A stretch of 64,000 nucleotides of DNA from a virus (lineage: Duplodnaviria > Caudoviricetes): positions 32,001 to 96,000 of the IMG/VR virus record IMGVR_UViG_3300029288_000081. The stretch is one strand, 5' to 3'. Positions within the stretch are counted from its first letter, which is position 1. The number at the start of each line of letters is the position of its first letter. This document shows, piece after piece, positions 6,257 through 47,322 of this stretch. The notes beneath the pieces were generated by a model that did no database searches, had not been told where the DNA came from, and saw only the letters and a program-made list of their open reading frames with translations. The position numbers were made by a program, and so were the translations under genes.

Positions 6257-6709
6257 ATGAGCTACGCACGCGGCCTCGGACAGGCCAAGATGGTTCCGGG
6301 CCAGATCAGCTTCCAGACCCTGCCCGAGGGACGCTCTGGCTTCCCGAGCCTCGACCCGCTCGTGCGGGCCGGCCTGCCGATCGCTCCGTACATCGAGCAT
6401 GGCTCCTGGGCGACGGGGCGGCCGGCGATCATGCGCTACGGGCTCGACCCCTACCGCGGGCTCGCTGGCGACTCCCTCGGGCAGATCCTGACCGGTTCGC
6501 TCTGCGACCCCACGGCGGTCTCAGCGGCCTTCCAGACGCGCCTGCGCGGAGCCCTCAACGCCGGCAGCCAGGCGGCCCTGGTGGGCGGCGCGGTGGCCGG
6601 GGTGGTAGGTGCCCTCTCCGGCAAGCGCAGCCCCATCATCGGGGCCGTGGCGGGCGCGCTGGTGGGTTGGACCGCCAACCTCGTCCTGACGGCCACGCAC
6701 AGAGCGTGA
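6257..6709 (+). CDS. membrane protein with MSYARGLGQ leader (putative virion protein)
   Basis: TAAGCT -10 box 7 nt before ATG; GLGQ and SLGQ motifs; C-terminal Gly-zipper TM segments. Confidence 0.7.
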   Translation: MSYARGLGQAKMVPGQISFQTLPEGRSGFPSLDPLVRAGLPIAPYIEHGSWATGRPAIMRYGLDPYRGLAGDSLGQILTGSLCDPTAVSAAFQTRLRGALNAGSQAALVGGAVAGVVGALSGKRSPIIGAVAGALVGWTANLVLTATHRA

Positions 6710-6734
6710 GCGCCAAGTGCAGAGGGAAGGCGCC

Positions 6735-7148
6735 ATGAGGAAGAACGGTGAGGCGACGGCCCTGCTCGACGCGATCATGAAGGCCGCCCCCAAGCTGCCG
6801 CTGCGCATCAAGGAGGCGCGCTCCTTCGACGGCTACCTCAGAAGCGAGCTTCCCGTGCAGAACGTCTACCCGGCCGACGATGAAGGCGGGGATGAAGGCG
6901 TTGTCCAGGCGCGAGAGTATGGCGACAGCATCGGCACCACGTTCTCGTGGGCCAACTACATCGCGCTGTCCGGCAACGCGCTACCGGCGCTCCTGGAGGT
7001 CGTGAGCGCGGCGCTGGAGTCGACCGACACGAAGGTCCGCGCGAAGGCCGAGGTGGCATCGCGAGAGCTGGTCAAGGTCGTGCAGAAGATCGCCGATGAG
7101 TCGGTCGTTGAGGTTCCTGAGTCAGAAGACGGCGATAGCGGATGGTGA
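6735..7148 (+). CDS. hypothetical protein starting MRKN
   Basis: GGAAGG SD; co-oriented with neighbours. Confidence 0.65.
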   Translation: MRKNGEATALLDAIMKAAPKLPLRIKEARSFDGYLRSELPVQNVYPADDEGGDEGVVQAREYGDSIGTTFSWANYIALSGNALPALLEVVSAALESTDTKVRAKAEVASRELVKVVQKIADESVVEVPESEDGDSGW

Positions 7149-7975
7149 GGCAGCATCAAGCTCTGGCGCAGGTCATCAAGGTTCGCGAAGGCGACCTCTC
7201 GCCCAACACTGGGCTCGCCCCCCTCTACCACGGCTCCGACTTCGAGCTGGACGAGCTGGACGGTGGCAACCCTGGCTACGCGGGCTCGCTCGGCTGGGGC
7301 CTCTACCTCACCACCGATCCAGCGTTCGCGAGGGTCTTCGGCAAGCATGTCTACGAGGTCGAGAGCCCTGTGCCTGACGAGCTGGTCGCCTACATCGAGA
7401 CCGATCTTCATGACTGCGGCGACAGCCTGACCATCGGAACTCCTGGGTCCACGCCGTTCACGTTCGAGATCACCGACCGCAGCACCGGCAAGACGCACCG
7501 CTACTCCGTTCTTGGCAACTGCGACGAGCAGGTGCGCGAAGGGCTTCGCAAGTGGGCCCTCGAAGACTTCAAGGAGACGTCGCAGGAGCTGAAAGACCGT
7601 GTCGCCGCGCTGCCAGCCGCTGCGAAGATTCGCATCGGCAAGGCTGCCGCTGCCGTGCTCGAAGCGATCTCCGAGTCAGAGCGAGTCGACGACATGATCG
7701 ATCTCTTCTTGGAGTCCATGTCCGAGAAGGATGGGGTCGACGACGCAACGCTCGACGGTCAGGTTCGTCCGATCCTCGAAGCGCTCGCAGAGGAGATCGA
7801 GGCGTTCGCCGACGAGAAGATCGCCAAGAGACTGGGCGACGAGATCGACCTCGATGACCTCTCCGCGACCGTCTCCGAGCACGGCTACAGCGCCTTCTTC
7901 ATCTCCGACTACGCGCCAGGCGACGAGTACGTCATCGTCGACAACGAGTACCTGCCGATCCCGGTGACGAAGTAG
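7142..7975 (+). CDS. ADP-ribosyltransferase-like protein (polyvalent-protein ART type)
   Basis: LYHGS...GWGLYLTTDPAFARVFG...VYEV signature, C-terminal DEYVI. Confidence 0.6.
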   Translation: MVRQHQALAQVIKVREGDLSPNTGLAPLYHGSDFELDELDGGNPGYAGSLGWGLYLTTDPAFARVFGKHVYEVESPVPDELVAYIETDLHDCGDSLTIGTPGSTPFTFEITDRSTGKTHRYSVLGNCDEQVREGLRKWALEDFKETSQELKDRVAALPAAAKIRIGKAAAAVLEAISESERVDDMIDLFLESMSEKDGVDDATLDGQVRPILEALAEEIEAFADEKIAKRLGDEIDLDDLSATVSEHGYSAFFISDYAPGDEYVIVDNEYLPIPVTK

Positions 7976-8605
7976 CTACACCCTCTTGTAGACGGCGATC
8001 AGGCGGCGGCGGACGTCCACGCGCTCTGCCGAGTCGTCGGGGAACGGGCCGTCGCAGAAGTGCTCCCCGTGGTCCGTGCCGATGACCGAACGCCCAAGCG
8101 CGCCCGCGATCAGCACCGGGTCGAACACGGCCAGGTGCCAGTCCTCCACGATGTACACGCCTCCGCGCCGGAGCATCGGCCAGCAGATCGCAAACGAGTC
8201 GATCACTGAACCTGCCCCGTGCGCACCGTCGTCGATGATCAGGTCGAACTCGCCGAGCGACCGTGCCGCAGGGTTCGGCATCGGGAGTACCTGACGACGA
8301 ACTCCAGCCCGATCGAGATGCGCCGCAGCTTCGGGGTTGATGTGTCCGAGCGTGATGTCGAGCCCGAGGATCTCTGCCGCCGGCCACAGCTCCCGCCACA
8401 TGGCCAGGCTGCCGCCGCTGTAGATGCCGATCTCCAGCACGCGTCCCGGATCGGCGCGACCGCCGAGCACCTGCTCGTACCCAACCAGCGTCTGCCGATC
8501 CTTCTGATGAACGATGTCGCCCTGCCGTCTCGACGCGGTGTGCAGGTACGAAAGCCTGCTGCCGTCACGCAGCGTCACGGTTCGCGTGAACTTCTCCAGC
8601 TCCAT
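7976..8605 (-). CDS. class I SAM-dependent methyltransferase (sugar O-methyltransferase-like)
   Basis: VLEIGIYSGGSL, GLDI, FDLIIDDGAH, GGVYIVED. Confidence 0.85.
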   Translation of the reverse strand: MELEKFTRTVTLRDGSRLSYLHTASRRQGDIVHQKDRQTLVGYEQVLGGRADPGRVLEIGIYSGGSLAMWRELWPAAEILGLDITLGHINPEAAAHLDRAGVRRQVLPMPNPAARSLGEFDLIIDDGAHGAGSVIDSFAICWPMLRRGGVYIVEDWHLAVFDPVLIAGALGRSVIGTDHGEHFCDGPFPDDSAERVDVRRRLIAVYKRV

Positions 8606-8618
8606 GTGTCTAGCCTCC

Positions 8619-9314
8619 TCAGAACGAGAGATGCGGCTGCGCATCGAACGGGGTAGCGAATCGCTCCTCGCCAGGCAGACCGCCCCACTTCTGAATGTAG
8701 TAGTCGCGGCAGGCACGGAAGCGCACGTGGTGCTGCTCCAGCTCCTTCTGCGAATACTGCTTCATCGTGCCGCTGTTCACGTGGTCGTAACCGCACGGAG
8801 CGATCGCTTCGGTTGCCCCGGCGATCTTCATGCGTCGATGGAAGTCGTTGTCCTCGAAGTACGCCGGCCAAAACATCTCGTCGAAGTATCCGACCTTCTC
8901 GAAGAGCGACAGGCGAACCATGAAGCACGAGAACATCTGGTGCATCGTCGACCGCGCGGGATCTGGAAAGGCGAGGTCTACACCAGTCTCTTCCATCGTC
9001 TTCAGAAGCTGCTCGATGCAATTCGTACCGAGAGAGACGTCGTCGCCGCAGATCAGCAGTCGATCCTCCGGCGTCTTCAGGTTGTCACGCGCAAGAATGT
9101 TCCACGACGGACCCACGCCGAGGTTCTTGCCAGGCCTGACGATCTCGACCGGCCTCGTGTGCAGAGGGTTCTGGTATCCGCCGTCCGCGAGCTTGCCGCC
9201 GTTGTCAACGACGACAATCTGATCCGGCGGAAGCGTGCCGGCGCATGCAGACGCGAGCAGCTCGGCACAGAGGTCGTAACGGTTGAGGGTTGGGACACCC
9301 AGGGTAACGATCAC
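8619..9314 (-). CDS. glycosyltransferase family 2
   Basis: VPTLNR, VVVDNG, NLGVGPSWN, GYFDEMFWPAYFEDNDF. Confidence 0.9.
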   Translation of the reverse strand: MIVTLGVPTLNRYDLCAELLASACAGTLPPDQIVVVDNGGKLADGGYQNPLHTRPVEIVRPGKNLGVGPSWNILARDNLKTPEDRLLICGDDVSLGTNCIEQLLKTMEETGVDLAFPDPARSTMHQMFSCFMVRLSLFEKVGYFDEMFWPAYFEDNDFHRRMKIAGATEAIAPCGYDHVNSGTMKQYSQKELEQHHVRFRACRDYYIQKWGGLPGEERFATPFDAQPHLSF

Positions 9315-9438
9315 GGGCGCTCCCCCTCGTGTCGGATCACCACCGTTGCGAGCCATGCGCGTCGCCCCACTTCGACAGGCTCGTTCTCCCAGTACGCTTC
9401 GATCGTCCTGGCTATCGCAGGCTTGTCCCAGTCGCTCA

Positions 9439-16993: not shown

Positions 16994-19111
16994 TCAGCCC
17001 TTGATACACAAGATCTGCTTCAGCTGCGCCTCGATCTCGACGAGGTCCGCCTGGTTGTCCATGACCGCGTCGATGTCCTTGTAGGCGCCGGGGATCTCGT
17101 CGAGCACCCCGCTGTCCTTGCGGCACTCGACGCCCTTCGTCGCCTCGGCCAGGTCCTCGATGTTGAAGCGACGCTTGGCCTCGCCGCGCGACATGCGCCT
17201 GCCGGCACCGTGCGATGCGGAGTGGAAGCTCTCCGGGTTCCCGAGCCCCTTCACGATGTACGAGCACGTTCCCATCGAGCCCGGGATGATGCCGCGCTCG
17301 CCGAGGCGCGCCGAGATCGCCCCCTTGCGCGTGACGAGCACGTCCTCGCCGAAGTGGTGCTCCTCGCTGACGTAGTTGTGGTGACACGAGACGTGCTCCC
17401 CGAACGAGATGGTCGGGAAGTGGTGACGCAGGATGCCCGCGCAGATCCAGAGCATCACGTCGCGGTTCGACTTCGCGTACTCCTGAGCCCACATCAGGTC
17501 GTGCCTGTAGCTCGCCATCTCGGGCGTCTTCGCGAGGAAGACGGACAGGTCCTTGTCCGGCAGCTCCGCGTTGTGCGCGAGCTTCCGCGCGCGAGCGATG
17601 TGAACCTCGGCCAGGCACTTGCCGATGTTGCGCGAGCCCGAGTGCAGCATGAGCCACACGTGATCGTCTGTGTCGAGGCACAGCTCGATGAAGTGGTTGC
17701 CGCCGCCGAGCGTCCCGAGCTGCTTCTGGGCGTTGCCGAGCTTATCCTGCACGATCGGGTCGAGGTTCTTGAAGCCAGCCCAGAGCGTCGAGCGGATCGC
17801 TAGCCCGTGCGTCTCCGCATGGCTGCTGGGGCCGACGGGGATCTCCTCCTCGATCATCGACCGAAGCGACGACAGCGAGTCCGGCAGCGAGTGCGACGTC
17901 AGGTTCGTTCGCACCGCAGCCATGCCGCAGTTACCCGTCATCACGACGTTTCCGCCGCGACGCATCACCCAAAACCCCGACGGCACCGTGAAGCAATACT
18001 CGAAGCCGTCCGCACTGGGCACGTGTTCGATCGGCGTCTTGGGCGCCCCAGCGATTCCCACCATCGACTCCGCGTGACCGAACACGCGATAGTCGACATC
18101 GCCATCGCTGTCAGTGTCGGCTCGCATCACGGCTCGGCGCCCACTGGCTGCGAAGGCGTACTGGATGAAGTCGGCAGACGCACGGTCACGTGTGAAGAAT
18201 ACGTGGTCGGCGGCAGTGCCGTCCCAGTGCAGGCACTCGTCGCTGATCAGTGCGAGCTGCTGCTGCGAGGCGGCCCAAAAGTCACCATACGTCTTCGTTC
18301 TCACCGGAGCGTCGAAGACGAACGACATGACCTGCCCATCCTCGTACCGCGCGTCACGCGCGACGCTTTCACTGAAGGCGATTCCAGCTTGCACAAGCAG
18401 CTCACGCATGCGGGCCTTCTTGCGATCCTTAACGAGCTTGACGCGCACCCCACTGCCCGTGTTGGCCAGGAAGTGCCCGTCGGCCATGACCGCCACCTGC
18501 ACCCGAAGAGCCGCGTCTTCGACCGGCAGACTCGTCGTCGTCCGCGGACAGAACGCTGTCTGGAACTCCGCCTTGGCGCCGAGAACCAAGCGATCGTGCT
18601 CTGCGGCAAGATCGGAAGCGAGCATGACCATCTGCTCACGACGACGATCACGTCCAGTGATCCTCCAGCACAGCACGCGGTGGTCTGGCGAAAGCATCTG
18701 GTTCACACCGTACTTCGTGCGGAACCAAAGGAACCCGTTCGACGGTCGCTGCACGTAGGCGTCCGGCGCCACGAAGACGCCGTCGCCGGACGTTGGCTCA
18801 TACTGCATCACCAGACCACCATCATACTCGGAGATCCGTCGCCATCCGCCTGGTGACAGGTACTCCGTGTCTGCGTCAACGCAGCCGATGTCCACGCCGA
18901 CCGCAGCCGGCGACAGCGCGTCCTTCATCGCGATGACCGACCCGACCGTTGCCCCCTTGCCGAAGTGAACGTCGGGCATGACGGCCACGTGATGAAAGCA
19001 CCACGGCAGCGCCGCGATGCCCTTGAGCTGGTCGAGCGCAGACGACTCGACCTCGTGGATGGGCGTCCACAGCTTCACCGGAACGACCTTGCCCTTCATC
19101 TCGGAGATCAT
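16994..19111 (-). CDS. rtcB: RtcB RNA ligase containing an intein
   Basis: MPDVHFGKG, VGVDIG|C, LGTLGGGNHFIE, LHSGSR, HHNY, SASHGAGR, DEIPGAYKDI. Confidence 0.95.
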   Translation of the reverse strand: MISEMKGKVVPVKLWTPIHEVESSALDQLKGIAALPWCFHHVAVMPDVHFGKGATVGSVIAMKDALSPAAVGVDIGCVDADTEYLSPGGWRRISEYDGGLVMQYEPTSGDGVFVAPDAYVQRPSNGFLWFRTKYGVNQMLSPDHRVLCWRITGRDRRREQMVMLASDLAAEHDRLVLGAKAEFQTAFCPRTTTSLPVEDAALRVQVAVMADGHFLANTGSGVRVKLVKDRKKARMRELLVQAGIAFSESVARDARYEDGQVMSFVFDAPVRTKTYGDFWAASQQQLALISDECLHWDGTAADHVFFTRDRASADFIQYAFAASGRRAVMRADTDSDGDVDYRVFGHAESMVGIAGAPKTPIEHVPSADGFEYCFTVPSGFWVMRRGGNVVMTGNCGMAAVRTNLTSHSLPDSLSSLRSMIEEEIPVGPSSHAETHGLAIRSTLWAGFKNLDPIVQDKLGNAQKQLGTLGGGNHFIELCLDTDDHVWLMLHSGSRNIGKCLAEVHIARARKLAHNAELPDKDLSVFLAKTPEMASYRHDLMWAQEYAKSNRDVMLWICAGILRHHFPTISFGEHVSCHHNYVSEEHHFGEDVLVTRKGAISARLGERGIIPGSMGTCSYIVKGLGNPESFHSASHGAGRRMSRGEAKRRFNIEDLAEATKGVECRKDSGVLDEIPGAYKDIDAVMDNQADLVEIEAQLKQILCIKG
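17930..18883 (-). mobile_element. intein (318 aa) inserted immediately before the catalytic Cys of RtcB
   Basis: DIG|CVDADTEYL start, SPDHRV block B, VAVMADG degenerate LAGLIDADG, YCFTVPSG...VVMTGN|CG end. Confidence 0.92.
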
Positions 19112-20732: not shown

Positions 20733-21074
20733 TCAGCGCTTGCTCGCGTACGCCTTGAGCGAGCGCATCGTCGTCTCGTTCGCGTTGCCGCGACGCTCCA
20801 GGCGCTCGTAGAGGTTCTTCGCCAGCTCGGGCGTCGAGACGCGCTTCACCGGCCTGTGGTTGCGCGTCACCGGCTTCTTGCTGAGCATCGCGAAGACGAT
20901 CGCCGCCAGCAGCAAGATGCCGATGATGATGAGGATGCGCTTGGTGTTCGCGTCGAGCGCCAGCGGTGCCGGCCCGGTCGGCACCTGCGAGAGCGGCAGG
21001 AGCTGGTACTGATGCGGCTGGATGGCCGGAGCCAGCGTATGCGGAACGGGACTGGGACCGATGTGATACGACAC
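20733..21074 (-). CDS. single-TM protein with VTRN motif after the TM
   Basis: 'ILIIIGILLLAAIVFAML-SKKPVTRNHR'. Confidence 0.7.
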   Translation of the reverse strand: MSYHIGPSPVPHTLAPAIQPHQYQLLPLSQVPTGPAPLALDANTKRILIIIGILLLAAIVFAMLSKKPVTRNHRPVKRVSTPELAKNLYERLERRGNANETTMRSLKAYASKR

Positions 21075-21664: not shown

Positions 21665-22153
21665 TCAGCGGCGAACCCGGCGACGACGCCGGTTCGCGGA
21701 GATCTTGCCGCGGTTGCGCTGGCCTTCGAGCACCTTGTAGCTGAAGACCGCCGCCATGCCGCTCAGCACGTAGAGCACCGCGAGCGGCGGCATCACGTAC
21801 TGCACGAAGTAGGGCGTCGCACGCTGCGCCACCCGGTCCACCAGCGGCGTGACGACCGTCTCGTCGAGCACGTTCACGACGCGCGGCGCCTGCGTGCGAG
21901 AGAACTGGTCCGGGTTCGCGATGACCTGCGCGCCGATCTGAGCCAGGCTCGCGGCGATCTGAAGCGCCCGCTGCGTGTCGGCCATCGGCGTAGCCGGAGC
22001 CACCTGCCCGAGACCCGCGAAGGTCACGCTCGCACCGTGCTGGACCGCACGGTTCAAGCACGCTCCCTCGTCGGCCATGCCCTGGCACGCCTCGGCGTAC
22101 TGGTTCCAGTACCTCTTGTACGAGGCGGATGACCCGAGTCCCGCGTAGCTCAT
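21665..22153 (-). CDS. membrane protein with MSYAGLG leader and SAN-Arg-rich tail
   Basis: YAGLGS, FAGLGQ, C-terminal TM, KISANRRRRRVRR. Confidence 0.75.
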   Translation of the reverse strand: MSYAGLGSSASYKRYWNQYAEACQGMADEGACLNRAVQHGASVTFAGLGQVAPATPMADTQRALQIAASLAQIGAQVIANPDQFSRTQAPRVVNVLDETVVTPLVDRVAQRATPYFVQYVMPPLAVLYVLSGMAAVFSYKVLEGQRNRGKISANRRRRRVRR

Positions 22154-22563
22154 CGGCGGCTCCCGCGGCGCCGGTTCCGACGCACGCGGCGCCGATTCTT
22201 CCTGAGCGTCAGGTACGAGCCCACGCCCAGGAGCAGCGCGGCTCCGCCGGCCACTCCCCACACCCAGCCCCTGGCGTACCAGGGCGTCGCCGGGGCCTGT
22301 CCGAGCCCCCGCAACGGCACCTGGGCGTACTGGCCGTAGGGGTACGGGCCCTGCGGCTTGAAGAGGTCGCCGTAGCCGCCGAGGTAGAGCACCTGCTCGC
22401 CCCAGACGCCCTTGCCGGCCTGGTAGCCGGCGCCGGGGATCGGCGTCCGCACGCTCCGCGGGTACTGACGGAAGCGTCCGAGGCTGCCGGGAAGGTACAG
22501 CGACGGAAGATAGGGACGGACGTGCGCCGGGGCCGGGTTGACGTGCATGGTGGCAGTCATCAT
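22150..22563 (-). CDS. Gly/Tyr/Pro-rich membrane protein with GLGQ motif and Arg-rich tail
   Basis: LRGLGQ-TM-LRKNRRRVRRNRRRGSRR. Confidence 0.75.
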   Translation of the reverse strand: MMTATMHVNPAPAHVRPYLPSLYLPGSLGRFRQYPRSVRTPIPGAGYQAGKGVWGEQVLYLGGYGDLFKPQGPYPYGQYAQVPLRGLGQAPATPWYARGWVWGVAGGAALLLGVGSYLTLRKNRRRVRRNRRRGSRR

Positions 22564-22594: not shown

Positions 22595-22897
22595 TCAGCT
22601 CAGCTCGTGCAGGCGCCGAAGCAGCTTGAGCGCCTCGTTGACGCGCTCCTTCGGCACCGAGACTGTGGAGGGTAGGCGCAGGTACACGTTCTGGTGCGCG
22701 TCCTCCATCAGGACAACGAACGACAGGCCAAGGGGGGAGCCCTTCTTCTTCATGGGTACCGTCAGCCGGACGGTCTCGCGCGGGACGTACACCTCGGGAG
22801 TGATGCTGATGTCGAGAAAACGACGCACGGCTGCCAGCGTCATGGGAGCGCGCTTCGAGGATCGGCGCCTCGGCGCTGCCTTCTTCGCGGCTGCCAT
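22595..22897 (-). CDS. basic hypothetical protein
   Basis: TGATG coupling with the upstream gene. Confidence 0.55.
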   Translation of the reverse strand: MAAAKKAAPRRRSSKRAPMTLAAVRRFLDISITPEVYVPRETVRLTVPMKKKGSPLGLSFVVLMEDAHQNVYLRLPSTVSVPKERVNEALKLLRRLHELS

Positions 22898-23358
22898 CAC
22901 CTTCCCCGCGAGGTCCGCCGCTTGGCGGCGGCAGGGCGCCTGGACCGGGGGCCTGCGAGCGGGCGGCTCGTGCGGCGCCTCGCCACCACGTCGCCCGGCA
23001 TGAGCGTCGGCAAGGCCCGCTTGGTTCGCAGCGCGATGAGCGGCCGCACGGGCTTGCCGGTGCCTCCGGAGAGGACGGCGATGCACCGGCCGCCGGGGTT
23101 GATGAGGGCGACGAGGATCTCCGCCACGCTGCCCGCCGGCACACGCTGCGCCTCGAACACCGCGTACTTCATCGCGGTCCTGCGGTCGTAGATCTTGGCC
23201 GAGAGCGATGTCCACCTCTGCCCCCAGAGCGTCGGCACCCCCTCCGCATCGAGCTTCAGGAAGACCATCTTGTACGCGGGGCCAGCGACCGTCAGCGCAC
23301 CGCTGTCCGCACTCTCGTCCGGTGCCGAGGGCGTCTCGGCTTCGTTGTTATCGACCAT
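22897..23358 (-). CDS. hypothetical protein with Arg-rich C-terminus
   Basis: Leaderless promoter TTGCTC-18-TACAAC-6-ATG. Confidence 0.6.
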   Translation of the reverse strand: MVDNNEAETPSAPDESADSGALTVAGPAYKMVFLKLDAEGVPTLWGQRWTSLSAKIYDRRTAMKYAVFEAQRVPAGSVAEILVALINPGGRCIAVLSGGTGKPVRPLIALRTKRALPTLMPGDVVARRRTSRPLAGPRSRRPAAAKRRTSRGR

Positions 23359-24565
23359 CCGGCCGTTGTACTCCATGTCTGACAAACCGAGCAACCTGTT
23401 CGTACACCGCCACCAGCCGGCGGGTCGTGATGTCGCGCGCGTACGACGCCCCGGTCTTCCGAGCGTTCTCGCGACGCGCCTCGCGCTCGCTTCGCGGCAG
23501 GCGTGACCAGTCGAACAGGGCTCTCGCGAGCGCCTCGGGGCTCAACTCGTTCACGATCTGGCCGTTGAAGCCGCTCTCGACGATGTCCCTGGTGCCGGGG
23601 CCGTCCACCGCGATGATGGGCACGCCCGCGGCCATCGCCTCGGCCAGGACGATGCCCTGCGTCTCGCTCGTCGAGGAGAACGCGAACGCATCCATGGCCC
23701 CGTAGGCGTCGGCGAGGGCCTGGCCACGCTGCACGCCGAGCCATCGGACGCGCGCGGCGACGCGGTTGGCGCGGAAGATCTGATCCATCTCCCTGGAGCA
23801 CGTCCCCTTGCCCACCACGATCGCTCGGGCCGCCGGGTTCGCCGTCATGAACATCGAGATCGACCGCGCGAGGAAGGCCAGGTTCTTCTCCTTGGACAGA
23901 CGACCAACGTGCCCGACCACGAACGCGTCCGGTGCGATGAAGTGCTTCTTGCGCACGCTCTTGCTGTCCGGGCTCGCGAAGAACTCGACGTCGATGCCCG
24001 ACGGGGTCACGTAGACCGGCACCGTCACGCCGCGCTCCATCAGCATCCGCGCGACGCTCCCCGAGAGCGTGCAGACGGCGTCGCACGCGTTGGCGAACAC
24101 CGACGGCACCGTCGTCGCCCCGAGGAACGAGGTGGCCGCTGCGGCAGCCTTGGAGAAGATCGACGCGTGCTTGGGGGCGAAGTGCTGCGTGTAGTGCTCG
24201 TAGAGCGTGTGGTGGTGGAAGATGATGGGCTTGCGCAGCGTCCTCGCCGCCACGAGCGCCGCACGACCCAGGAGGAACGGGTGGTGCGCGTGGACGACAT
24301 CGGGGTTGAACCTCTCGACGATGTTGGTGAGCGGCCCCACCACGTAGAGAGGCATCGAGAAGTCGCTCCCTCCGACGGCGGGGATCGAAGGAACCCGGAT
24401 GTTCCCCTCGCTGTCGGCGTGGATGGGCGTCACGGCGTCAGGGCCCGGGGCGACAACGAGCACCTCGTGCCCGAGCTTGCGCAGCGAGCGCACCATCCGG
24501 TCGACGCCGTTCGCCACGCCTCCGACGTGCGGCAGGTACGTGTTGGTGGCCATGAGGACGCGCAT
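23348..24565 (-). CDS. glycosyltransferase family 4, diacylglycerol glycosyltransferase-like
   Basis: TNTYLPHVGGVA, DVVHAHHPFLLG, HHHTLYEHY, VGRLSKEKN, SETQGIVLAEAMAAG. Confidence 0.9.
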   Translation of the reverse strand: MRVLMATNTYLPHVGGVANGVDRMVRSLRKLGHEVLVVAPGPDAVTPIHADSEGNIRVPSIPAVGGSDFSMPLYVVGPLTNIVERFNPDVVHAHHPFLLGRAALVAARTLRKPIIFHHHTLYEHYTQHFAPKHASIFSKAAAAATSFLGATTVPSVFANACDAVCTLSGSVARMLMERGVTVPVYVTPSGIDVEFFASPDSKSVRKKHFIAPDAFVVGHVGRLSKEKNLAFLARSISMFMTANPAARAIVVGKGTCSREMDQIFRANRVAARVRWLGVQRGQALADAYGAMDAFAFSSTSETQGIVLAEAMAAGVPIIAVDGPGTRDIVESGFNGQIVNELSPEALARALFDWSRLPRSEREARRENARKTGASYARDITTRRLVAVYEQVARFVRHGVQRPDGR

Positions 24566-24590: not shown

Positions 24591-24884
24591 ATGGGCTACT
24601 CGCAGGTCACGGGCATGAGTTCGACGCGCTTCCCTCTGAAGGGGCTGAGCGGGTGTGGTTGCCAGGCCACGAGCGGTCTGGGGCAGGTCGAGAACTCGCC
24701 TCTCGGCGGGCTCCTGGCGCTTGGGCTCTTCGGAACGCTCGCGTACCTGACCTTCACGAGCCCGGGGACGTGGAAGATCGGCAGGGACGTGACCTACACG
24801 AGCGGTGGCTACTACGACCACGGGTTGGGCAAGTGGGTGACCCCGAACCGTCGTCGCCGCGGGCGCGGCCGCCGTCGGCGCTGA
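24591..24884 (+). CDS. small membrane protein with GLGQ motif and TPN-Arg-rich tail
   Basis: TATAGT -10 box 7 nt before ATG; LKGLSGCGC, SGLGQ, TM, VTPNRRRRGRGRRRR. Confidence 0.7.
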   Translation: MGYSQVTGMSSTRFPLKGLSGCGCQATSGLGQVENSPLGGLLALGLFGTLAYLTFTSPGTWKIGRDVTYTSGGYYDHGLGKWVTPNRRRRGRGRRRR

Positions 24885-34965: not shown

Positions 34966-36243
34966 TCAGCCGCCGCCGCCGGTCGTGTAGAGGGACAGGT
35001 AGAGGCCACGGGCCTGCGCGACCTGTCCTCCGCCTCCGCCGACGATGAAGAGGTCGTACCAGTCGCTGGCAGGAATCGTCACGTTCGCGGCGAGGCCGAC
35101 GTCCTGCATGGCGCCGGTGGCGGCCCAGGTGGCCACGAGCGCTCCGCCAGTGAACGCGCGCATGTTGAGCGTGGCCGTCTCTGCGCCGCCGGCCACGGTC
35201 CCGAGCATGGCCTTGGACCCCGCGAGCAGAACGGTGCCCTGGGGGAAGTAGAGGGAGCCGATCAGTAGCTCGACGACGCCCGTCTGCGTACCGTTGAGAA
35301 CGTGCCGCTCCTTGGTGCCGGCCGACGCGTCGAGGCCGTCGGTGATGGTGACCGTGAGCAGAGACTGTGCTGCGAGGGAAGCGTACGCCGAGTACACCGC
35401 CCTGTTCATGTTGCTCGCGGTGCCGACGATCGCCTGCGGCTGCACCGTGCCGACGTCGTAGCCAATCAGGCCCACGTTGACGATGCCGCCTGTGTTGTCG
35501 GTGACGACCGTGTAGTCACCGGCGTTCGAGATGCCGCGCACGGTGACGTTCAGCGTTGAGCTGCCGGTGCCGGTGGGCGCCAGGTAGAACACGCCCACCG
35601 GCGTGACGCTGACCGAGTCGCCGGTGAACGTGGTGTTGGTGGCATCGACGGTCAGGGCCGCCATGTAGTTGGTCGGCACGAGCCTGAACGGCGACGCCGT
35701 CATGTTCCCGGCGTCGAGCGCCACCGCCAGGTTGTCGAACGCGATCGGCAGATAGCCCGACGTGATGGTCGCGTCCACGCCGTCCATGAAGACGAGCTGC
35801 GCCTGTTCGATGCCGGCACTCCTGAACGTCCAGCCGCTGAAGTCGTAGACCCCGGCGGGGATGGTCGGCGTCATGAACTGCCCGTCGATCAGCACCGTCG
35901 GGTTGGTCAGAGTCGACGCCTCGGTGTACAGCAGGCCGAAGTCTGTGTAGGTGTTGCCCGAGGCCACTCCGCCAGGCTGGTAGACGAGCGGCACGAGGTC
36001 GCAGCAGCCGCCTGCCGCCCCGGTCGGTACCGCGGCCCAGACGGCTGCGCCTGCGGTAGGGTCCGTGCAGAGGTACATGGCGCCGCCACCGGCGACGACC
36101 CAGGCGGCGTCGCCGGCCTGGATCTCGCCCCACTGGGTCGTGGACCCAGCGACGTTCGGCAGCTCGGCTGCGGTACTCCACTTGCCCCACCAGTGATGGA
36201 AGCCCCACGGTGCGACTGGACGTTGGCCTGCGACGAAGCTCAT
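34966..36243 (-). CDS. putative virion structural/fibre protein
   Basis: Gly/Thr/Ala/Val-rich beta composition, 'YLCTDPTAGAAVW' fibre-like motif; leaderless TAGGAT promoter. Confidence 0.55.
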   Translation of the reverse strand: MSFVAGQRPVAPWGFHHWWGKWSTAAELPNVAGSTTQWGEIQAGDAAWVVAGGGAMYLCTDPTAGAAVWAAVPTGAAGGCCDLVPLVYQPGGVASGNTYTDFGLLYTEASTLTNPTVLIDGQFMTPTIPAGVYDFSGWTFRSAGIEQAQLVFMDGVDATITSGYLPIAFDNLAVALDAGNMTASPFRLVPTNYMAALTVDATNTTFTGDSVSVTPVGVFYLAPTGTGSSTLNVTVRGISNAGDYTVVTDNTGGIVNVGLIGYDVGTVQPQAIVGTASNMNRAVYSAYASLAAQSLLTVTITDGLDASAGTKERHVLNGTQTGVVELLIGSLYFPQGTVLLAGSKAMLGTVAGGAETATLNMRAFTGGALVATWAATGAMQDVGLAANVTIPASDWYDLFIVGGGGGQVAQARGLYLSLYTTGGGG

Positions 36244-36745: not shown

Positions 36746-38932
36746 TCAGCGTCGCGACGTACGCCGCTCGGAGCGCCTGTTGCGTCGCACCCTCGTCGGC
36801 CCAGCGTTCGCCGCCAGGAGCGCGAGCGCGCCGACGGCGCCGATCCCAAGCCACGCCTGGCTCGACAGGCCCATGACGCCGGCCTCGTCGCCCATGCCGC
36901 CCAGGCCCGTCTTCGAGGTGTCCGCCAGGAGCGCAGCGAGCGGGTTCCCGATCGTGTCCCGCTCCTGGTCCGCCTTCTCTCCACCGGACGGCTCGGTCCA
37001 GGTGCCCCACTGCCGATCACAACCGCCAGCGCCGGCCCGGTAGCACGTCTCGCGCTCGCGCGACTTCGTGAGAGCCGCCTGCGCCGCCGAGCGAGCTAGC
37101 GCACGGCCCGCCGGTGTCGTCGGCTGCATGTCGCGGAGCAGTGAGACCAAGCGCTGGCCCGCCTGCACCATCGAGCCGCGGATGTTGTTGCGCTTGACCG
37201 AGTCGGAGTAGTCGGTCGCCTTGAGGTTGCCGTACTGCGAGTCGAGGTAGTTCTTTGCGATGGTCACCTCTTCCAACAGGGCCCTCGCGAGGGGCGCCTC
37301 GGCCTGCGTGTTGGCCTTGTCGATCACGACGGCCTGCTTGTACACGCTGACGAGCGGGCCGATCACCCTGTCCTGCTCGTGCGCGGCCTTGTCGTTGCCG
37401 TGGTCCTCGTTCAACGCGAAACGACCGCATCCGGTCTGGTCGTAGAGGTAGCAGAGCTTCCTGCGGATGGCAGAGAGGAGAGCCTGCTCGGTGAGAACTG
37501 CAACGGGGCGCACCAGCTTCTTGTCCCCCGAGTTCTGCGCGAGCACGAGGGCTTCGCGGAGGCACGCCGCGAGCGCTGCGCCAGCGGCAAGGATCGACTG
37601 CCGGGTGTTGTTGCGCTTCAGCGCGTCGGACCACTTGGTCGCCCTGTAGTGGTCGAACTGTCCGTCGACGTAGCCCTTCATGGCCGCACAGATGCGGAGC
37701 TTGGCGGTGATGAGCGGCTCGTACGCGGCCACCTCGCCGCGGGTAGACAGGGTCCGAGCGAAGTGTGCGTAGGCGGAGATGAGCGGCATCGTGGTGCTCG
37801 CCATCTCCTGGGCCGCCTTCACGTCAGGCTGATCTTCATCGAGCGCGAACGTGCCACACCCGGGCTCGTTCAGGAAGAACCCGCGCCACCGGTCGATCGA
37901 AGCGTTGAGCGCGGCCAGGGTGAGCTTTCCGACGGCGCGCATGCTCGTCATGCTGCCGAAGCTGTACGCGGACGCCCAGACGGTCTGGAGGCAGGCGACG
38001 AGAGTCCGCCCGTCGGCAAGGATCGACTGCCGGGTGTTGTTGCGCTTCAGCGGATCGTTGTTCGTGGCCCTGTAATGCCCCCACTGCCCGTCGATGTAGG
38101 ACTTGAGGAAGGTGCAGGGCCGCAGCATGGCGGCGAGGAACTTCTCGCCGTCGGCCTGCGCAAGAGCCCGCCTCGGGCCTCCGACCTTGGTCACCGCCTG
38201 CATGTAGGCGGCCACGAGCGGTACGATCACTCGGGCCTGCTCCTGGGCGCCCTTCGCGTCGGGCTGATCTTCGTCGAGCGCTTGGGTGCCGCAGCCGCGC
38301 TCGTTGTTGAGGAAGCAGATTCTGCGAGTGATCGCAGAGTCGAGTGCCCGCACGATCGACTGAGCGATGAGCGTCGTCGCCTGGTTGTTCGGCGACTGCA
38401 CGATCGCTTCCGCGTAGGTGGCCGCCAGCGCAGCGCCGCCGGCCAAGATCGACTGCCGGGTGTTGTTGCGCTTCACCAGATCGTTGTTCGTCGCCTTGTA
38501 CTCGTCGAACCACCCGTCGATCTGTGCGCGGGACACGTCTGCCGCGGCCTGAAGCGACGCGGCAGGATCCGTTGGGGCCCCCAGCTCCCGAGCCTGGGCC
38601 AGGCATGCGGCGATCTGCCCTTCGAGCCGCGTCATGCTCGTTCGGTCAGGCGTCGGCAGACTTCGGAGCTGGACGAGGCTCGCTCGCAGGGCATCACACT
38701 CGGCGGCCTTGGCCGCCCTGGCCACCTGCGGGTCGACGGCCGTCGGTCCGGTGGGCAGGGTGCTCTGTGCCGAGGCCGAGGACGGGCTCAGGAGCAGGTA
38801 CGCAGCTCCTCCGGCGGCAACGAGGCCGATCCCGCCCAGCACCAGCATCTTCTTCTTGGACGACGGAGCGGCGGGCGCGGCATCGTTCCGGCGCAGGCGC
38901 CGGCTGGACCTTCTCTTGAGTCGACGGGCCAT
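36746..38932 (-). CDS. 728-aa membrane protein with four ~142-aa internal repeats and Arg-rich/RRN termini
   Basis: MARRLKRRSSRRLRRN-TM ... GLGGMG-TM-VRRNRRSERR; repeat core YxAT..D.xKRNNxR. Confidence 0.8.
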   Translation of the reverse strand: MARRLKRRSSRRLRRNDAAPAAPSSKKKMLVLGGIGLVAAGGAAYLLLSPSSASAQSTLPTGPTAVDPQVARAAKAAECDALRASLVQLRSLPTPDRTSMTRLEGQIAACLAQARELGAPTDPAASLQAAADVSRAQIDGWFDEYKATNNDLVKRNNTRQSILAGGAALAATYAEAIVQSPNNQATTLIAQSIVRALDSAITRRICFLNNERGCGTQALDEDQPDAKGAQEQARVIVPLVAAYMQAVTKVGGPRRALAQADGEKFLAAMLRPCTFLKSYIDGQWGHYRATNNDPLKRNNTRQSILADGRTLVACLQTVWASAYSFGSMTSMRAVGKLTLAALNASIDRWRGFFLNEPGCGTFALDEDQPDVKAAQEMASTTMPLISAYAHFARTLSTRGEVAAYEPLITAKLRICAAMKGYVDGQFDHYRATKWSDALKRNNTRQSILAAGAALAACLREALVLAQNSGDKKLVRPVAVLTEQALLSAIRRKLCYLYDQTGCGRFALNEDHGNDKAAHEQDRVIGPLVSVYKQAVVIDKANTQAEAPLARALLEEVTIAKNYLDSQYGNLKATDYSDSVKRNNIRGSMVQAGQRLVSLLRDMQPTTPAGRALARSAAQAALTKSRERETCYRAGAGGCDRQWGTWTEPSGGEKADQERDTIGNPLAALLADTSKTGLGGMGDEAGVMGLSSQAWLGIGAVGALALLAANAGPTRVRRNRRSERRTSRR

Positions 38933-45097: not shown

Positions 45098-45186
45098 CTG
45101 TCGTTCGTCCTTTCGACACACTTGGCGTGTCCAGCGGACTGTGTCAGACAGCGCCACGTTGGTCAAGAAGTAGGTATGCTTGGCGC

Positions 45187-46233
45187 ATGAGCGTCTCTTC
45201 CGAGCTGACCTTCGTTCCTCGCGACAGTCATCTGCTGGCCCGCTTCGGCAAGGGCAACGACACCAAGCTGAAGATGCACCTGTTGATGCTTGCTGCGTTC
45301 CTGGAGGGCAAGCCCGAGAACACGAAGCGCTCGTACCGCGCGGCGATCCGTCAGTTCTTCACGCTGTTCGACTGGGTCTGCCCCGAGGACGTGACCATCG
45401 CTCACGCGGTCGCCTTCAAGCGCCATCTGATGGAGCACGTCAGCGACGCGACGGCCTACTACCGGCTGTCGGCCATGAGCAGCTACTTCGAGTTCCTTCG
45501 TCGGCCTGCCGGCGCGACCGACGAGCCGCTCATCAAGAACAACCCGTTCAGCGCCGTCCCACGCTCGGACATCAAGCCGACGCCGTATGGGCGCGCGGTG
45601 CCGATGGAATGGAAGACCCTGAAGCTGATCATGGACAAGCTGCCGACGGATCCGTCGGGCATCCGTGACCGGGCCATCCTCCTCTTCTTCGCGTTCACCG
45701 GGCGGCGCCGCACCGAGGTGGCGTCGCTCGTGATGAAGGACCTCGACCTGAAGAGCGAGACCAAGACGTACCGGTGCCGCGTGAAGGGCGGAGCGCTGAA
45801 GCACTTCGAGCTGCCGTCGATCTGCTACGACGCGCTGAAGGCGTACTGGATCGCCTCGGGGCGGCTCGCGACCCTGCACGCGAACGCGGGCGTCTTCGCC
45901 TCGATGCGCGACTGCTCGCTCACCAAGGGCTGCGATCCGGACAAGCCGCTCTCGCCGCGCATGATGAACAACATCCTGCGTCGAGCAGCCAAGCGTGCCG
46001 ACGTCGACCTCGCGATCGTCCGCCTGCACGGCCTTCGGCACATGGCCGCGAAGGACCTCGACAAGGCTGGGGCGCGCCTCCAGGACATCCAGGAGTTCCT
46101 CGGGCACCTGAGCCCGAACACGACCGCCGTCTACCTCCAGAAGCTCGGTGGGCCGGCCAAGGCGCACGAGGGGATGTTCATGCAGGTCCGTGAGGCGGCA
46201 GCGGAGATGGCGCGGAACCTCAGCGAGAGCTGA
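45187..46233 (+). CDS. tyrosine recombinase (XerC/D-like)
   Basis: RDRAIL..TGRRRTEV, VKGG, HGLRH, LGH...TTAVY. Confidence 0.93.
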   Translation: MSVSSELTFVPRDSHLLARFGKGNDTKLKMHLLMLAAFLEGKPENTKRSYRAAIRQFFTLFDWVCPEDVTIAHAVAFKRHLMEHVSDATAYYRLSAMSSYFEFLRRPAGATDEPLIKNNPFSAVPRSDIKPTPYGRAVPMEWKTLKLIMDKLPTDPSGIRDRAILLFFAFTGRRRTEVASLVMKDLDLKSETKTYRCRVKGGALKHFELPSICYDALKAYWIASGRLATLHANAGVFASMRDCSLTKGCDPDKPLSPRMMNNILRRAAKRADVDLAIVRLHGLRHMAAKDLDKAGARLQDIQEFLGHLSPNTTAVYLQKLGGPAKAHEGMFMQVREAAAEMARNLSES

Positions 46234-46570
46234 CCTGCCGGAGCACGTGAGCGACGAAGGCGGCAGGAGGTCGCACACTGTGCTCGCGCAGGTAGTGGCC
46301 GAATCCTTCCGGCCACACGTAGACGCCGTCGGAGTAGTCGGCGCTGCCGTTGTTCCAGATGCGACAGATGCGGCACGTAGACATGCCGCGGTACTGGTCG
46401 CCAAGGAAGCGACTGTCCGAGACGTACCTGATCACCTTGTCTCGCTCGGCCCAGTTCCAGCTCGGGTCGACGAAGGCACGCACGTCCGGGTACTTGCCAT
46501 CGTCGTTTCGCGGGTCGAGGCTCTTCCAGAATCCGACCTCGATCGGCTGTCGCCGCGCCGTGTAGCTCAT
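46220..46570 (-). CDS. hypothetical protein
   Basis: GAGG SD, ATGA overlap; 'YRGMSTCRIC...DGVYVWPEGFGHYLREH'. Confidence 0.7.
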   Translation of the reverse strand: MSYTARRQPIEVGFWKSLDPRNDDGKYPDVRAFVDPSWNWAERDKVIRYVSDSRFLGDQYRGMSTCRICRIWNNGSADYSDGVYVWPEGFGHYLREHSVRPPAAFVAHVLRQVSSR

Positions 46571-47322
46571 CGACCTCTCCGGCGGTTGCGCTTCACGTGC
46601 TTGCTCCTGCCGTAGGCCCACCAGGCGAAGGCGGCGCCAGCTCCGAGGACGGCGAGCCCAGGTACGTAGATGGGCACGGTCGTGGCCGCGCGAGCCCGAC
46701 CCGCCAACGACGGTCCTGCGACGCGCCCCTCGTCCTCGATCGTCACGAAGTCAGCAGGCCACGAGTTCGTCTGGCTCTCGGTGATGTACCAGTTGCCGTC
46801 TCGCAGGACGATGGCCGAGGACGGGTGCCGCAGCAGGTAGTTGGTCGTGACGGGCGCGTTCGCGAAGTTGGCGGCGCGCGGCACCGGGTTCGGCAGCCGG
46901 GCGGTCGCGAACTTGACGATGACCTCGCGGACCGCGGGACGAATCTCCGACCACGGCATCGTCGCTGCCCGGTCTCGAACCGCGAGCCTTCGTTCCGCGC
47001 ATTCATCCCTGCCGTGGTAGGCGCCGCCGGGACGGCACTTCGTCCCGTCGCGACGCCAGATGGGGTTCACCGGCTGACTGTGCGCCTGAACGAGCCCCTT
47101 CAGGCTGCTGCCGCGGCGCATCGCCAGGAGCTGCGCGTACGTCCACGCGGTCGCCTCGTTGTTGCCTGCCTCGTGCTGAACAGAACGGGCCAGCCACAGG
47201 AGATCGTCGGGCGTCATCTGGTACGACCAGCCGCCCTGGGTCTTGATTTGCCCAGGTGTCGGGATCGAGCTGACGTCCACCGGCTCTTCGCTCTGTCCCA
47301 GGCCCATCATCGCGTACGACAT
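46567..47322 (-). CDS. cell-wall hydrolase-like (SleB-type) membrane protein with MSYAMMGLGQ leader and VKRN-Arg tail
   Basis: 'DLLWLARSVQHEAG' catalytic Glu motif; C-terminal TM. Confidence 0.65.
   Translation of the reverse strand: MSYAMMGLGQSEEPVDVSSIPTPGQIKTQGGWSYQMTPDDLLWLARSVQHEAGNNEATAWTYAQLLAMRRGSSLKGLVQAHSQPVNPIWRRDGTKCRPGGAYHGRDECAERRLAVRDRAATMPWSEIRPAVREVIVKFATARLPNPVPRAANFANAPVTTNYLLRHPSSAIVLRDGNWYITESQTNSWPADFVTIEDEGRVAGPSLAGRARAATTVPIYVPGLAVLGAGAAFAWWAYGRSKHVKRNRRRGR

Follow-up and report, generated by a model that had tools for sequence, protein, structure and literature searches.

A four-part tag set on membrane proteins of a large uncultured bacterial virus, with a candidate processing enzyme

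About 20 unrelated late proteins of an uncultured bacterial virus carry a set of tags that is statistically real and selected at the protein level. The set has four parts, an MSY N-terminus, a G-L-G motif, a single transmembrane (TM) helix and an Arg-rich tail, and it probably marks the virion membrane proteins of a particle without recognisable head, tail or packaging genes. The tags may serve as a modular sorting and maturation signal on these proteins, with the product of gene g231 as the candidate cutter, a reading that is put forward tentatively and at a little under an even chance.

The viral genome is 171 kb in length (66% G+C; record estimated complete), and its clade is one of uncultured, large bacterial viruses. 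Counts for this genome refer to our own call of 266 genes, in which starts were chosen partly by Shine-Dalgarno score, and comparisons were made with two complete relatives, G001 and G002 (59% and 68% G+C). The following tagged genes and neighbours lie in the window, a stretch of 64,000 nucleotides of this genome, to which the coordinates refer.

g074, 6257..6709, plus strand, 150 aa: MSYARGLGQ leader and a second site, SLGQ; no Arg tail; two Gly/Ala-rich hydrophobic segments at the C-terminus, with a weak glycine-zipper Pfam match; orthologues in G001 and G002 retain MSY and [LM]GQ.
g093, 20733..21074, minus strand, 113 aa: MSY start and one strong TM segment (residues 47-65); no G[LM]G; MSY orthologues in G001 and G002.
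g095, 21665..22153, minus strand, 162 aa: MSYAGLGS leader, FAGLGQ at residue 47, TM 120-138 and ANRRRRRVRR tail; orthologues retain MSY, an [LM]GQ site and the NRRRRR tail.
g096, 22150..22563, minus strand, 137 aa: LRGLGQ 12 residues ahead of the TM, then KNRRRVRRNRRRGSRR tail.
g098, 22897..23376, minus strand, 159 aa: weak hydrophobic segment and Arg-rich tail; no G[LM]G; no Pfam match.
g099, 23348..24565, minus strand: GT4-family glycosyltransferase (Pfam Glyco_transf_4, 1e-30; Glycos_transf_1, 4e-29), untagged, yet sitting among tagged genes.
g100, 24591..24884, plus strand, 97 aa: MGY start, LKGLSG, TSGLGQ 6 residues before the TM (38-56), and PNRRRRGRGRRRR tail.
g118, 36746..38932, minus strand, 728 aa: N-terminal Arg tag, then a TM and four internal repeats (domain common to g239); TGLGGMG 12 residues before the last TM, then VRRNRRSERRTSRR tail; no Pfam match.
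g133, 46220..46570, minus strand, 116 aa: MSY start, no TM and no tail; paralogue of g014.
g134, 46567..47322, minus strand, 251 aa: MSYAMMGLGQ leader, wall hydrolase-like domain (SleB-like by eye), TM 215-233 and VKRNRRRGR tail.
g138, 49317..49988, minus strand, 223 aa: soluble domain, then a TM and VRRNRHRS tail; no G[LM]G; no Pfam match.
g159, 63097..63909, minus strand: M23 peptidase (Pfam Peptidase_M23 at 5e-16) with VMGLDG (192) and DALGQ (201) upstream of the TM (228-246), then PNRRRSGPRKSR tail; the G001 orthologue retains the NRRR tail.

A sequence-only reading of the window had singled out the G-L-G peptides as a Gly-site processing signal. Each peptide it quoted was found at the gene named for it, and the pattern holds across the genome and the clade; most fall in the range assigned to the motif (6257-47322), with only the two sites of the M23 peptidase lying beyond it. 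The claim that all bearers are TM proteins is borne out by a hydrophobic segment in every quoted gene, and the claim that most have an Asn-Arg tail by such a tail at the end of all of them except g074.

The conserved core of the motif is hydrophobic-x-[G/A/S]-[L/M]-G-[Q/small], lying at a distance of 5-25 residues from the N-terminus or, where it precedes a TM helix, of 6-25 residues from that helix, and the junction into the Arg-rich tail is hydrophobic-x-x-Asn. Among the non-homologous proteins that bear the tags are an M23 peptidase, a repeat protein, a wall hydrolase-like protein and small membrane proteins. Orthologues can differ at the first Gly (GLGQ to ALGQ, GMGQ or SLGQ); the L/M-G pair is constant and Q is frequent. 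The tags recur in both complete relatives. They are found as well in 120 orthologues of g134 from databases, which retain the TM segment and basic tail throughout; in some 35-40 of these the leader of MSY plus hydrophobic-x-G-L-G is preserved too, its two parts separated by a spacer that varies. Several tagged proteins go without one or more of the modules, and the motif is a loose one. MSY also starts the soluble helicase g016 and the polymerase exonuclease subunit g177, which have no motif, TM or tail, and MSY may therefore have another cause.

Sites of this kind might be expected from composition, gene calling or recent duplication, since a high G+C content favours Gly, Ala and Arg codons and the gene caller weighs Shine-Dalgarno boxes in picking starts. 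The counts are not reproduced, however, by shuffles that preserve the composition of each protein: GLGQ occurs 11 times (0.85±0.95 in shuffles) and LGQ 25 times (10.7±3.2), and the control tripeptides LGE, LGN, LGS, IGQ and VGQ are not enriched. MSY starts number 19 where 1.5 are expected (binomial p 4e-16), and excesses are also found in G001 (MSY 8 vs 1.3 expected) and G002 (MSY 10 vs 1.2; GLGQ 10 vs 0.8). Eleven of the 19 MSY proteins have G[LM]G within their first 22 residues, as against 2 of the 247 others, and the MSY start is associated with a basic tail (Fisher p 2e-5). Moreover, the tags persist in relatives at lower and higher G+C and in the g134 orthologues, whose genes were called by others, and the tagged proteins are mostly not paralogues by all-against-all BLASTP, so that an artefact is effectively refuted. 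The Ser codon after ATG varies among the MSY genes (AGC 14, TCG 4, TCC 1) and a Shine-Dalgarno box is the only element common to their upstream DNA; the signal therefore resides in the protein. Enrichment, orthologues and relatives together uphold the earlier suggestion that the signal on these membrane-anchored late proteins is genuine and conserved.

In each of the 11 clean single-pass proteins one TM separates the motif from the Arg tag, so that the two lie across the membrane from each other. This rule is for the most part a product of an N-terminal motif and a C-terminal tail; independent tests come from two of the 11 only, g118, with an Arg tag at each end, and g247, whose elements stand in the reverse order. 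An arrangement of short motif, TM helix and basic cluster is familiar from the C-terminal LPXTG/sortase, PEP-CTERM/exosortase and GlyGly-CTERM/rhombosortase signals. Five proteins (g096, g100, g118, g159 and g236), with the motif 6-25 residues before the TM, resemble these tripartite signals, whereas many other motifs are N-terminal and more than 100 residues from the TM, and the tails much exceed the basic clusters of those signals in length and Arg content.

A candidate for an enzyme acting on the motif is encoded at genome positions 143545-144141, outside the window, by g231. This gene adjoins the tagged block directly upstream in all three genomes, and its product shares 83% and 66% identity with its counterparts in the two relatives. 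The protein alone falls below every Pfam threshold; among 725 relatives found, His157 and Asp174 are invariant and Cys119 nearly so, and Pfam Transglut_core is matched by 71 of 96 relatives and BTLCP (Peptidase_C93) by 6 of the 96. The family profile matches PNGase (E 0.002) and 4u65_E, a 'Putative cystine protease' that we take to be LapG (E 0.024), in the PDB. These similarities predict for g231 a transglutaminase/papain-like fold with Cys-His-Asp order and make it a candidate for the processing role; the transglutaminase fold is also that of some cross-linkers and amidases. LapG is a C-H-D enzyme of this fold that works as a protease, and its substrate is cut at one defined position close to the N-terminus (PMC3032545). 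The triad and predicted fold are shared, and the BTLCP similarity is weak. LapG acts in the periplasm on a giant adhesin, depends on calcium and is under c-di-GMP control, whereas g231 belongs to the late genes of a virus and would have many substrates.

The MSY/G-L-G element would most likely be cut by g231, in a manner like that of the adenovirus protease at IVGL-G or of T4 capsid-targeting leaders. Cleavage of adenovirus pVI at IVGL-G is documented (PMC4246237). The sites of adenain (AVP; pVI, pVII, pX/Mu) are likewise short and Gly-centred, with a hydrophobic residue two before the first Gly (in this virus, at 60% of TM-protein G[LM]G sites vs 29% background); they too are common to many unrelated virion precursors, with Arg-rich DNA-condensing core proteins among the substrates. 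MMGLG, LRGLG, FAGLG and YAGLG are adenain-like without being strict adenain sites, and because the first Gly is exchangeable the exact consensus match claimed by the sequence-only reading holds for some sites and fails for others. Unlike adenovirus, this virus has a bacterial host, membrane-anchored putative substrates, Q favoured after the motif and no identified double jelly-roll hexon. Nor is there a clan CE protease: a six-frame search with Peptidase_C5 was empty at E<=10, and no adenain or Ulp1-type gene was found in the genome. The protease that had been anticipated has a counterpart, of another type, in a candidate cysteine protease heading the late module.

In T4, a short conserved N-terminal leader takes otherwise unrelated proteins into the assembling particle (PMC3012670). 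That capsid targeting sequence, removed by prohead protease gp21, is comparable to the leaders described here, which in addition are joined to a TM segment and Arg tail; T4, by contrast, is tailed, with an HK97-fold capsid and soluble cargo. The gp21 protease cuts at L/I-x-E, and the genome matched no prohead protease family, of gp21 type or any other.

Recruitment need not involve cutting, and the MSY/G-L-G element could instead dock onto a shell, sub-capsomer or scaffold protein, g231 having some other job. The retention of both leader elements across a variable spacer is as expected of a short linear binding motif; a leader of 5-10 residues would be an odd propeptide, and cutting at the internal motifs just before TM helices would free whole ectodomains. 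No tagged protein's annotated mature end begins at the motif. Docking alone is nevertheless considered unlikely, given the conserved papain-like enzyme beside the tagged genes in three genomes and the fact that a motif of small residues, with a hydrophobic one two positions ahead of it, is characteristic of sites cut by viral proteases (PMC4246237).

More improbable still is that g231 is a true transglutaminase that joins the Gln of G-L-G-Q to lysines of the shell or core, stapling the membrane layer to the particle. The superfamily of its relatives, the excess of Q after G[LM]G and the retention of Q at sites whose first Gly has changed (GLGQ to ALGQ; also SLGQ to GMGQ) would suit such a role. 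In the g134 orthologues, however, Q is freely exchanged for A, S, T or D with G-L-G unchanged, many sites in the 171-kb genome end in S, D, T or R, and the sole true protein-glutamine transferase among the PDB matches of the family is weak (E 0.26).

As to the particle itself, about 95 proteins, including all of at least 280 aa, were scanned against PHROGs and Pfam without a match to terminase, portal, HK97 capsid, sheath, tube, tape-measure or tail families, in a scan that easily detected replication and lysis genes. The TerL, portal and HK97 Pfam families are also absent from three relatives, of which one is 90% complete and the others are estimated to be complete. With no HK97 capsid, portal, terminase or tail module detected in the complete genome and a candidate protease present, the combination named in advance as counting against a membrane-containing virion, a conventional tailed-phage module with no such protease, was not seen. 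The expected A32-type packaging ATPase was not forthcoming (no A32 match, and no P-loop protein in the late module), and neither was a double jelly-roll capsid. Of the two most conserved late proteins, g256 and g257, it is g257 that models as a single jelly roll, with generic matches only. The late module also encodes the strongly basic proteins g258, g262 and g263. A tailless particle with an internal membrane is therefore plausible and moderately likely, from the lack of structural and packaging matches in the genome and relatives and the g257 jelly roll; of the earlier proposal, the non-tailed, membrane-bearing aspect gains from the missing module and the tagged proteins, and the double jelly-roll and A32 aspect does not.

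To our knowledge every known prokaryotic dsDNA virus above ~50 kb is tailed, and a very divergent tailed phage has to be weighed, with genes for capsid, portal, terminase and tail that profile searches miss. Its tagged proteins would then serve in ejection, inside the head or in the remodelling of host membranes and would not belong to a viral membrane, and the tag would still direct packaging and maturation, much as in T4 or the phiKZ-like phages. The automatic taxon labels of related Atlas clusters are Uroviricota, g257 has its best VIA match in a tailed-cyanophage cement protein (several others being tailed-phage decoration or tail proteins), weak matches link g166 to pectate lyases and g192 to tail-fibre assembly, and g256, g228, g006 and g235 have no assigned fold. 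Against this stand the empty structural scan in a record estimated complete, terminal repeats in one relative, the hallmark families absent from three relatives, the late module without a P-loop protein, and g228 itself, whose long Glu/Arg coiled-coil centre is not portal-like and whose 100 homologues are all without a known domain. A tailed phage in disguise is accordingly judged doubtful.

For a tailless particle with an internal membrane there are partial parallels. In SPV1 (Sulfolobus polyhedral virus 1, Portogloboviridae) a polymerase or replication-initiation gene is not identifiable (PMC8459092). The late module described here, with protamine-like and many membrane proteins, is similar to SPV1 in features rather than by demonstrated protein homology; SPV1 is a 20-kb archaeal virus for which such a tag grammar is not described, as opposed to a 171-kb genome of bacterial type with 30 tRNAs and its own replication genes. 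We know of no packaging ATPase in SPV1. Phages of the PRD1 and PM2 types are alike in their clusters of small membrane proteins made late and in wall hydrolases associated with the membrane, within a shell that is icosahedral. Tectiviridae and Corticoviridae differ in their 10-15 kb genomes, in having no Arg-tail or MSY/GLG tags, and in a double jelly-roll capsid and FtsK/A32-type ATPase, neither of which was found here.

On this reading of the tags as a sorting and maturation signal, the Arg tails would hold the proteins against DNA on one face of the viral membrane and the MSY/G-L-G element would act as the signal on the other, in a particle that is probably tailless and may be built of an internal membrane and a protamine-like nucleoprotein core.

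Membrane proteins of this virus carry a four-part tag, comprising an MSY start, a hydrophobic-x-G-L-G-Q motif, a transmembrane (TM) segment and an Asn-Arg-rich tail. The tag was counted over the 266 genes (g001-g266) of a self-trained call that covers 92% of the 171,466-bp record, which is 100% complete by CheckV, has 66% G+C and encodes 30 tRNA genes; the window corresponds to bases 32001-96000 of this record. Nineteen proteins start with MSY where 1.5 are expected (p 4e-16), and G[LM]G is found within 22 residues in 11 of these 19 versus 2 of the 247 other proteins. GLGQ is seen 11 times, whereas shuffles that preserve composition give 0.85; LGQ is enriched, and five control tripeptides are not. 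Tails with at least seven Arg/Lys in the last 20 residues close 35 proteins, 19 of which contain Asn followed by at least three Arg/Lys. Two positions ahead of the first Gly, 60% of G[LM]G sites in TM proteins have a hydrophobic residue, compared with a background of 29%, and Y, F, T or P are likewise found there. All of the peptides quoted in the sequence-only reading were recovered in the translations of the genes. Tagged genes are densest at g232-g250 (144-157 kb of the genome, beyond the window), and 12 relevant genes lie within the window.

The Ser codon after the ATG is variable and the upstream DNA has only a Shine-Dalgarno box in common, and selection therefore acts on the protein. A nucleotide-level cause of the MSY start, such as a conserved start region, is ruled out by this codon variation. 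Paralogy is also ruled out as the origin of the common tags, the tagged proteins being mostly non-paralogous apart from the pairs g118/g239, g233/g234 and g254/g255. A third candidate, that the motif is a TM-adjacent glycine zipper, is rejected for the many cases in which over 100 residues separate the motif from the TM segment. Several individual proteins carry part of the tag or a sequence feature of their own:

Genome 8518-11433 (L001): a soluble SNF2-type helicase that starts with MSY.
Genome 109339-109998 (L004:1339-1998): a soluble DNA polymerase exonuclease subunit that starts with MSY, a start kept in its orthologue in the relative G001.
Window 49317-49988, minus strand: g138, with an N-terminal VLIWGDSQAG that by eye resembles a GDSL/SGNH hydrolase block.
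Genome 158770-162425 (L007:5770-9425): g254 (924 aa) and g255 (245 aa), which have a Gly/Ala-rich membrane region in common.

The MSY-headed helicase and exonuclease subunit have neither G-L-G, TM segment nor tail, and Tyr at position 3 is generally enriched (28 of 266 proteins). The C-terminus of g138 consists of a TM segment and a VRRNRHRS tail; the protein has no Pfam match and may be a further membrane-anchored enzyme of the tagged set. The region common to g254 and g255 closes with the same C-terminus, GG-x-FARHLF-x-GM, and is kept in all relatives.

Two related genomes, G001 (161.5 kb, with terminal repeats) and G002 (152.9 kb), are both complete and were fetched whole. MSY starts number 8 in G001 and 10 in G002, versus 1.3 and 1.2 expected, and GLGQ occurs 10 times in G002 versus 0.8 expected. 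Among orthologues the core of the leader is kept while its flanks change, as in the series MSYARGLGQ to MSYRRRALGQ, FAGLGQ to ASGMGQ, and MSYFNGHSRTGLMGLG to MSYAQAMAGLGQ to MGPGLMGLGQ. The longest series is that of g134, a tagged wall hydrolase-like protein for which 120 database orthologues of 40-88% identity were compared. Almost all of the 120 have the C-terminal TM segment and basic tail, and about 35-40 have the leader, with MSY fixed at the very start and hydrophobic-x-G-L-G following 5-25 residues later across a spacer that drifts; the remaining orthologues begin directly at the catalytic domain. Judged from this comparison, the g134 leader behaves as a short linear signal in two parts, both kept by selection. 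Within the motif, [L/M]-G is constant, with a small residue before it and Q or another small or polar residue after it, and orthologues have A, S or H in place of the Gly at P2. Because [L/M]-G is constant and the preceding small residue varies, the sequences follow the strict adenain rule (Gly at P2) only in part. The claim that the motif is a Gly-site signal, with MMGLG and LRGLG matching the adenain consensus exactly, can thus be divided: enrichment and conservation across the clade bear out a conserved signal, and the agreement with the adenain consensus is partial.

The adenain-type protease predicted along with the motif did not materialize, as a six-frame search of the entire genome with PF00770 gave no match at E<=10 and no clan CE protease family appears among about 95 proteins scanned. 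The motif system is not an adenain system. A different candidate enzyme adjoins the tagged genes:

Genome 143545-144141 (L006:5545-6141): g231, a candidate processing enzyme, immediately upstream of the tagged block.

g231 itself has no match in Pfam or PHROGs, and a six-frame search of the genome with Pfam Transglut_core found nothing. An exhaustive phmmer search recovered 725 relatives (E down to 1e-9). When g231 is aligned with 96 of them, His157 and Asp174 are invariant and Cys119 is nearly so, in the context GDCDD...SHVF...LDP and in the order Cys, His, Asp, as in the transglutaminase-like superfamily (the Pfam clan of PF01841, PF04473 and PF06035). Among the 96, PF01841 (Transglut_core) is matched by 71, DUF553 by 22 and BTLCP by 6, and it is by transitive homology only that g231 is assigned to this superfamily. 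The family profile gives weak matches in the PDB to peptide N-glycanase (E 0.002) and to a "Putative cystine protease", 4u65_E (E 0.024), which we take to be LapG. LapG has a transglutaminase-type fold that is able to act as a site-specific protease (PMC3032545), and the adenovirus protease cuts pVI at IVGL-G (PMC4246237). The identity of g231 is 83% in G001 and 66% in G002, where it occupies the same position ahead of the tagged genes, and its conservation equals that of the best late proteins. Adjacency, co-conservation and precedent make it plausible that g231 is the putative processing enzyme of the motif. Alternatively, g231 could possibly be a cross-linker acting through the Gln that is frequent in the motif. 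As far as comparison of sequences goes, the motif is a conserved signal, and its processing by g231 is plausible.

The arrangement of the two ends of the tag relative to the membrane was read with a hydropathy-based TM caller that is crude and over-calls Ala/Gly-rich stretches; for this reason a raw odd/even count of 16 to 9 was set aside and only 11 clean single-pass cases were used. In these 11 proteins, each with a single clear TM helix, the motif lies across the helix from the Arg tag. In g247 the order is reversed, with RRNP followed by the TM segment and GMG, and the two are still on opposite sides, and in g118 there is an Arg tag at each end, each beside a TM helix, with repeats and TGLGGMG between them. 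Since most motifs are N-terminal and most tails C-terminal, only g247 and g118 provide independent support for this topology.

The genes expected of a tailed phage were sought in a PHROGs/Pfam scan of about 95 proteins, including all of at least 280 aa. Matches were obtained for replication-type proteins (helicases, exonucleases, a polymerase exonuclease subunit and a primase-like protein), for an endolysin and an M23 peptidase, for glycosyltransferases, and for a PhoH-RtcB fusion, an integrase and a methyltransferase. Families of terminase, portal, capsid and protease-scaffold, and those of tape measure, tube, sheath and baseplate, were matched by none of the proteins scanned, and six-frame searches of the genome gave no match to HK97 capsid (PF05065), Terminase_6N (PF03237), NCLDV capsid (PF04451) or, at E<=10, Pox_A32 (PF04665). 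Four related records, of which three are at least 90% complete, likewise lack TerL_ATPase (PF03354), Phage_portal (PF04860) and Phage_capsid (PF05065). A Walker A/P-loop motif occurs in no late-module protein, and tail-related matches are weak (tail-fibre assembly, E 7e-4; tail assembly chaperone, E 0.037). The portal-sized g228, whose centre is a long Glu/Arg coiled coil, has about 100 homologues, none with a known domain, and its family profile has no PDB match; single-sequence PDB searches of g228, g006, g170 and g158 returned nothing meaningful. Candidate surface proteins are encoded at two places:

Window 34966-36243, minus strand: g116, which has a C-terminal module of about 90 residues in common with g165.
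L003:5004-8171: g165 and its neighbour g166, the latter with a weak pectate-lyase-like match (E 0.012).

It is possible that g116, g165 and g166 are spike or fibre proteins.

The late module itself spans both ends of the record, which is circularly permuted, because orthologues of g001, g004 and g006 lie directly after g264 in related contigs. The following proteins, recognized by eye, flank it:

L001:25-471, L006:18319-18756 and L007:17286-18233: g001, g249 and g266, accessory proteins.

g001 (L001:25-471) has the J-domain signature KYHPD, g266 an HExxH SprT-like motif, and g249 a Nudix-like look. Elsewhere in the genome the following were observed:

Window 7976-16250, minus strand: a sugar-modification cluster with a methyltransferase, galactosyl/glycosyl transferases, an acetyltransferase, an aminotransferase and a 774-aa glycosyltransferase-containing protein.
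Window 16476-19111: a PhoH-like and RtcB fusion protein of 705 aa beside odd tRNA-like genes, one of which has an "anticodon" of four bases, gcga.
Window 27877-32379: an array of 28 tRNA genes.
Genome 21935-22776 (L002): the small neighbours g043 and g044, identical in their N-terminal 20 residues (MTHDALRRLG...).

The sugar-modification cluster could serve glycosylation of virion or host surface components, and an (E/D)ALxRLG-like motif recurs in many small early proteins. No catalytic DNA polymerase and no RNA polymerase subunit was recognised anywhere in the genome, although it has helicases, exonucleases and a primase-like protein. For two large proteins, g158 (979 aa) and g170 (1078 aa), neither a family nor a PDB match was obtained. 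Against 50,697 phage records, neither megablast with 20 kb nor tblastn with g257 and g228 found a match, a search for related loci with g242 as query found no relatives, and ESM Atlas look-ups yielded unnamed viral clusters only.

Among the late proteins, g256 and g257 are the most conserved, with 52-81% identity across relatives. In the g257 model (pLDDT 62, pTM 0.55) a single jelly roll comes after a long helix, and Foldseek places vaccinia D13 and PBCV-1 Vp54 at the top, with E no better than 2e-3 and TM 0.23. The predicted fold is, with moderate confidence, a jelly roll and not HK97. AlphaFold of g256 with eight orthologues gave no usable fold (pLDDT 29), the g256 family profile matched nothing among PDB sequences, and the g257 and g256 families showed no homology by hhalign; the predicted complex of g256 and g257 scored 0.00 and was used neither way. 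Strongly basic proteins of the late module include g258, composed almost wholly of Arg/Lys/Ser, and the Arg-tailed g262 and g263.

The sequence-only reading held that an internal-membrane virion fits this genome. In its favour, PHROGs/Pfam profiles detected no HK97 capsid, portal or terminase, and with no head, tail or packaging match the idea is plausible. The A32-type packaging ATPase that it pointed to was not borne out, given the lack of a PF04665 match and of a Walker A in the late module, and of the double jelly-roll capsid there is no PF04451 match, only the one jelly roll modelled for g257. About 20 late TM proteins carry common tags, which is indirect evidence for lipid beneath the shell. 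On balance, and mostly on negative evidence, the particle is probably tailless and contains an internal membrane as well as a protein-condensed core. With these features it would resemble SPV1 (PMC8459092).

A broader reading, which we advance tentatively and at somewhat under an even chance, is of a clade of bacterial viruses of 140-300 kb with no tail, portal or packaging motor, a membrane under a jelly-roll shell, and tags read by a transglutaminase-fold protease. DNA would be condensed by Arg-tailed and protamine-like proteins under the internal membrane, within the shell, and more than 20 membrane proteins would be sorted and matured via MSY, hydrophobic-x-G-L-G-Q, the TM segment and an x-x-N-Arg tail, with the dedicated protease as reader of this grammar. 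Hosts of the clade would possibly be Planctomycetota or other PVC bacteria. Members of the g256 family were observed on metagenome-assembled (MAG) contigs (L036-L043) whose binning points mainly to Planctomycetota and other PVC lineages. The bins are Phycisphaeraceae, Planctomycetota, Pirellulales and Lentisphaeraceae, and also Deltaproteobacteria, Acidobacteriota and Pseudomonadota; resting on binning, this is a weak clue to a PVC host.

In T4 and adenovirus, virion proteins are known to be loaded and matured by way of common leader tags. We know of no description of a conserved four-part tag on membrane-anchored proteins together with a transglutaminase-fold enzyme, and to our knowledge the only viruses with a tailless, membrane-lined, motor-free particle are about ten times smaller. 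Each of the core proteins g256, g134, g228 and g231 has some 100-725 relatives in the databases, and with the tag as a simple sequence rule the probable membrane proteins of the virion can be listed for a virus clade that is widespread and wholly without annotation. If true, a tailless, membrane-lined particle at 171 kb would break the rule that tails are universal among large prokaryotic dsDNA viruses, and protein-condensed, motor-free genome packing would extend to bacteria.
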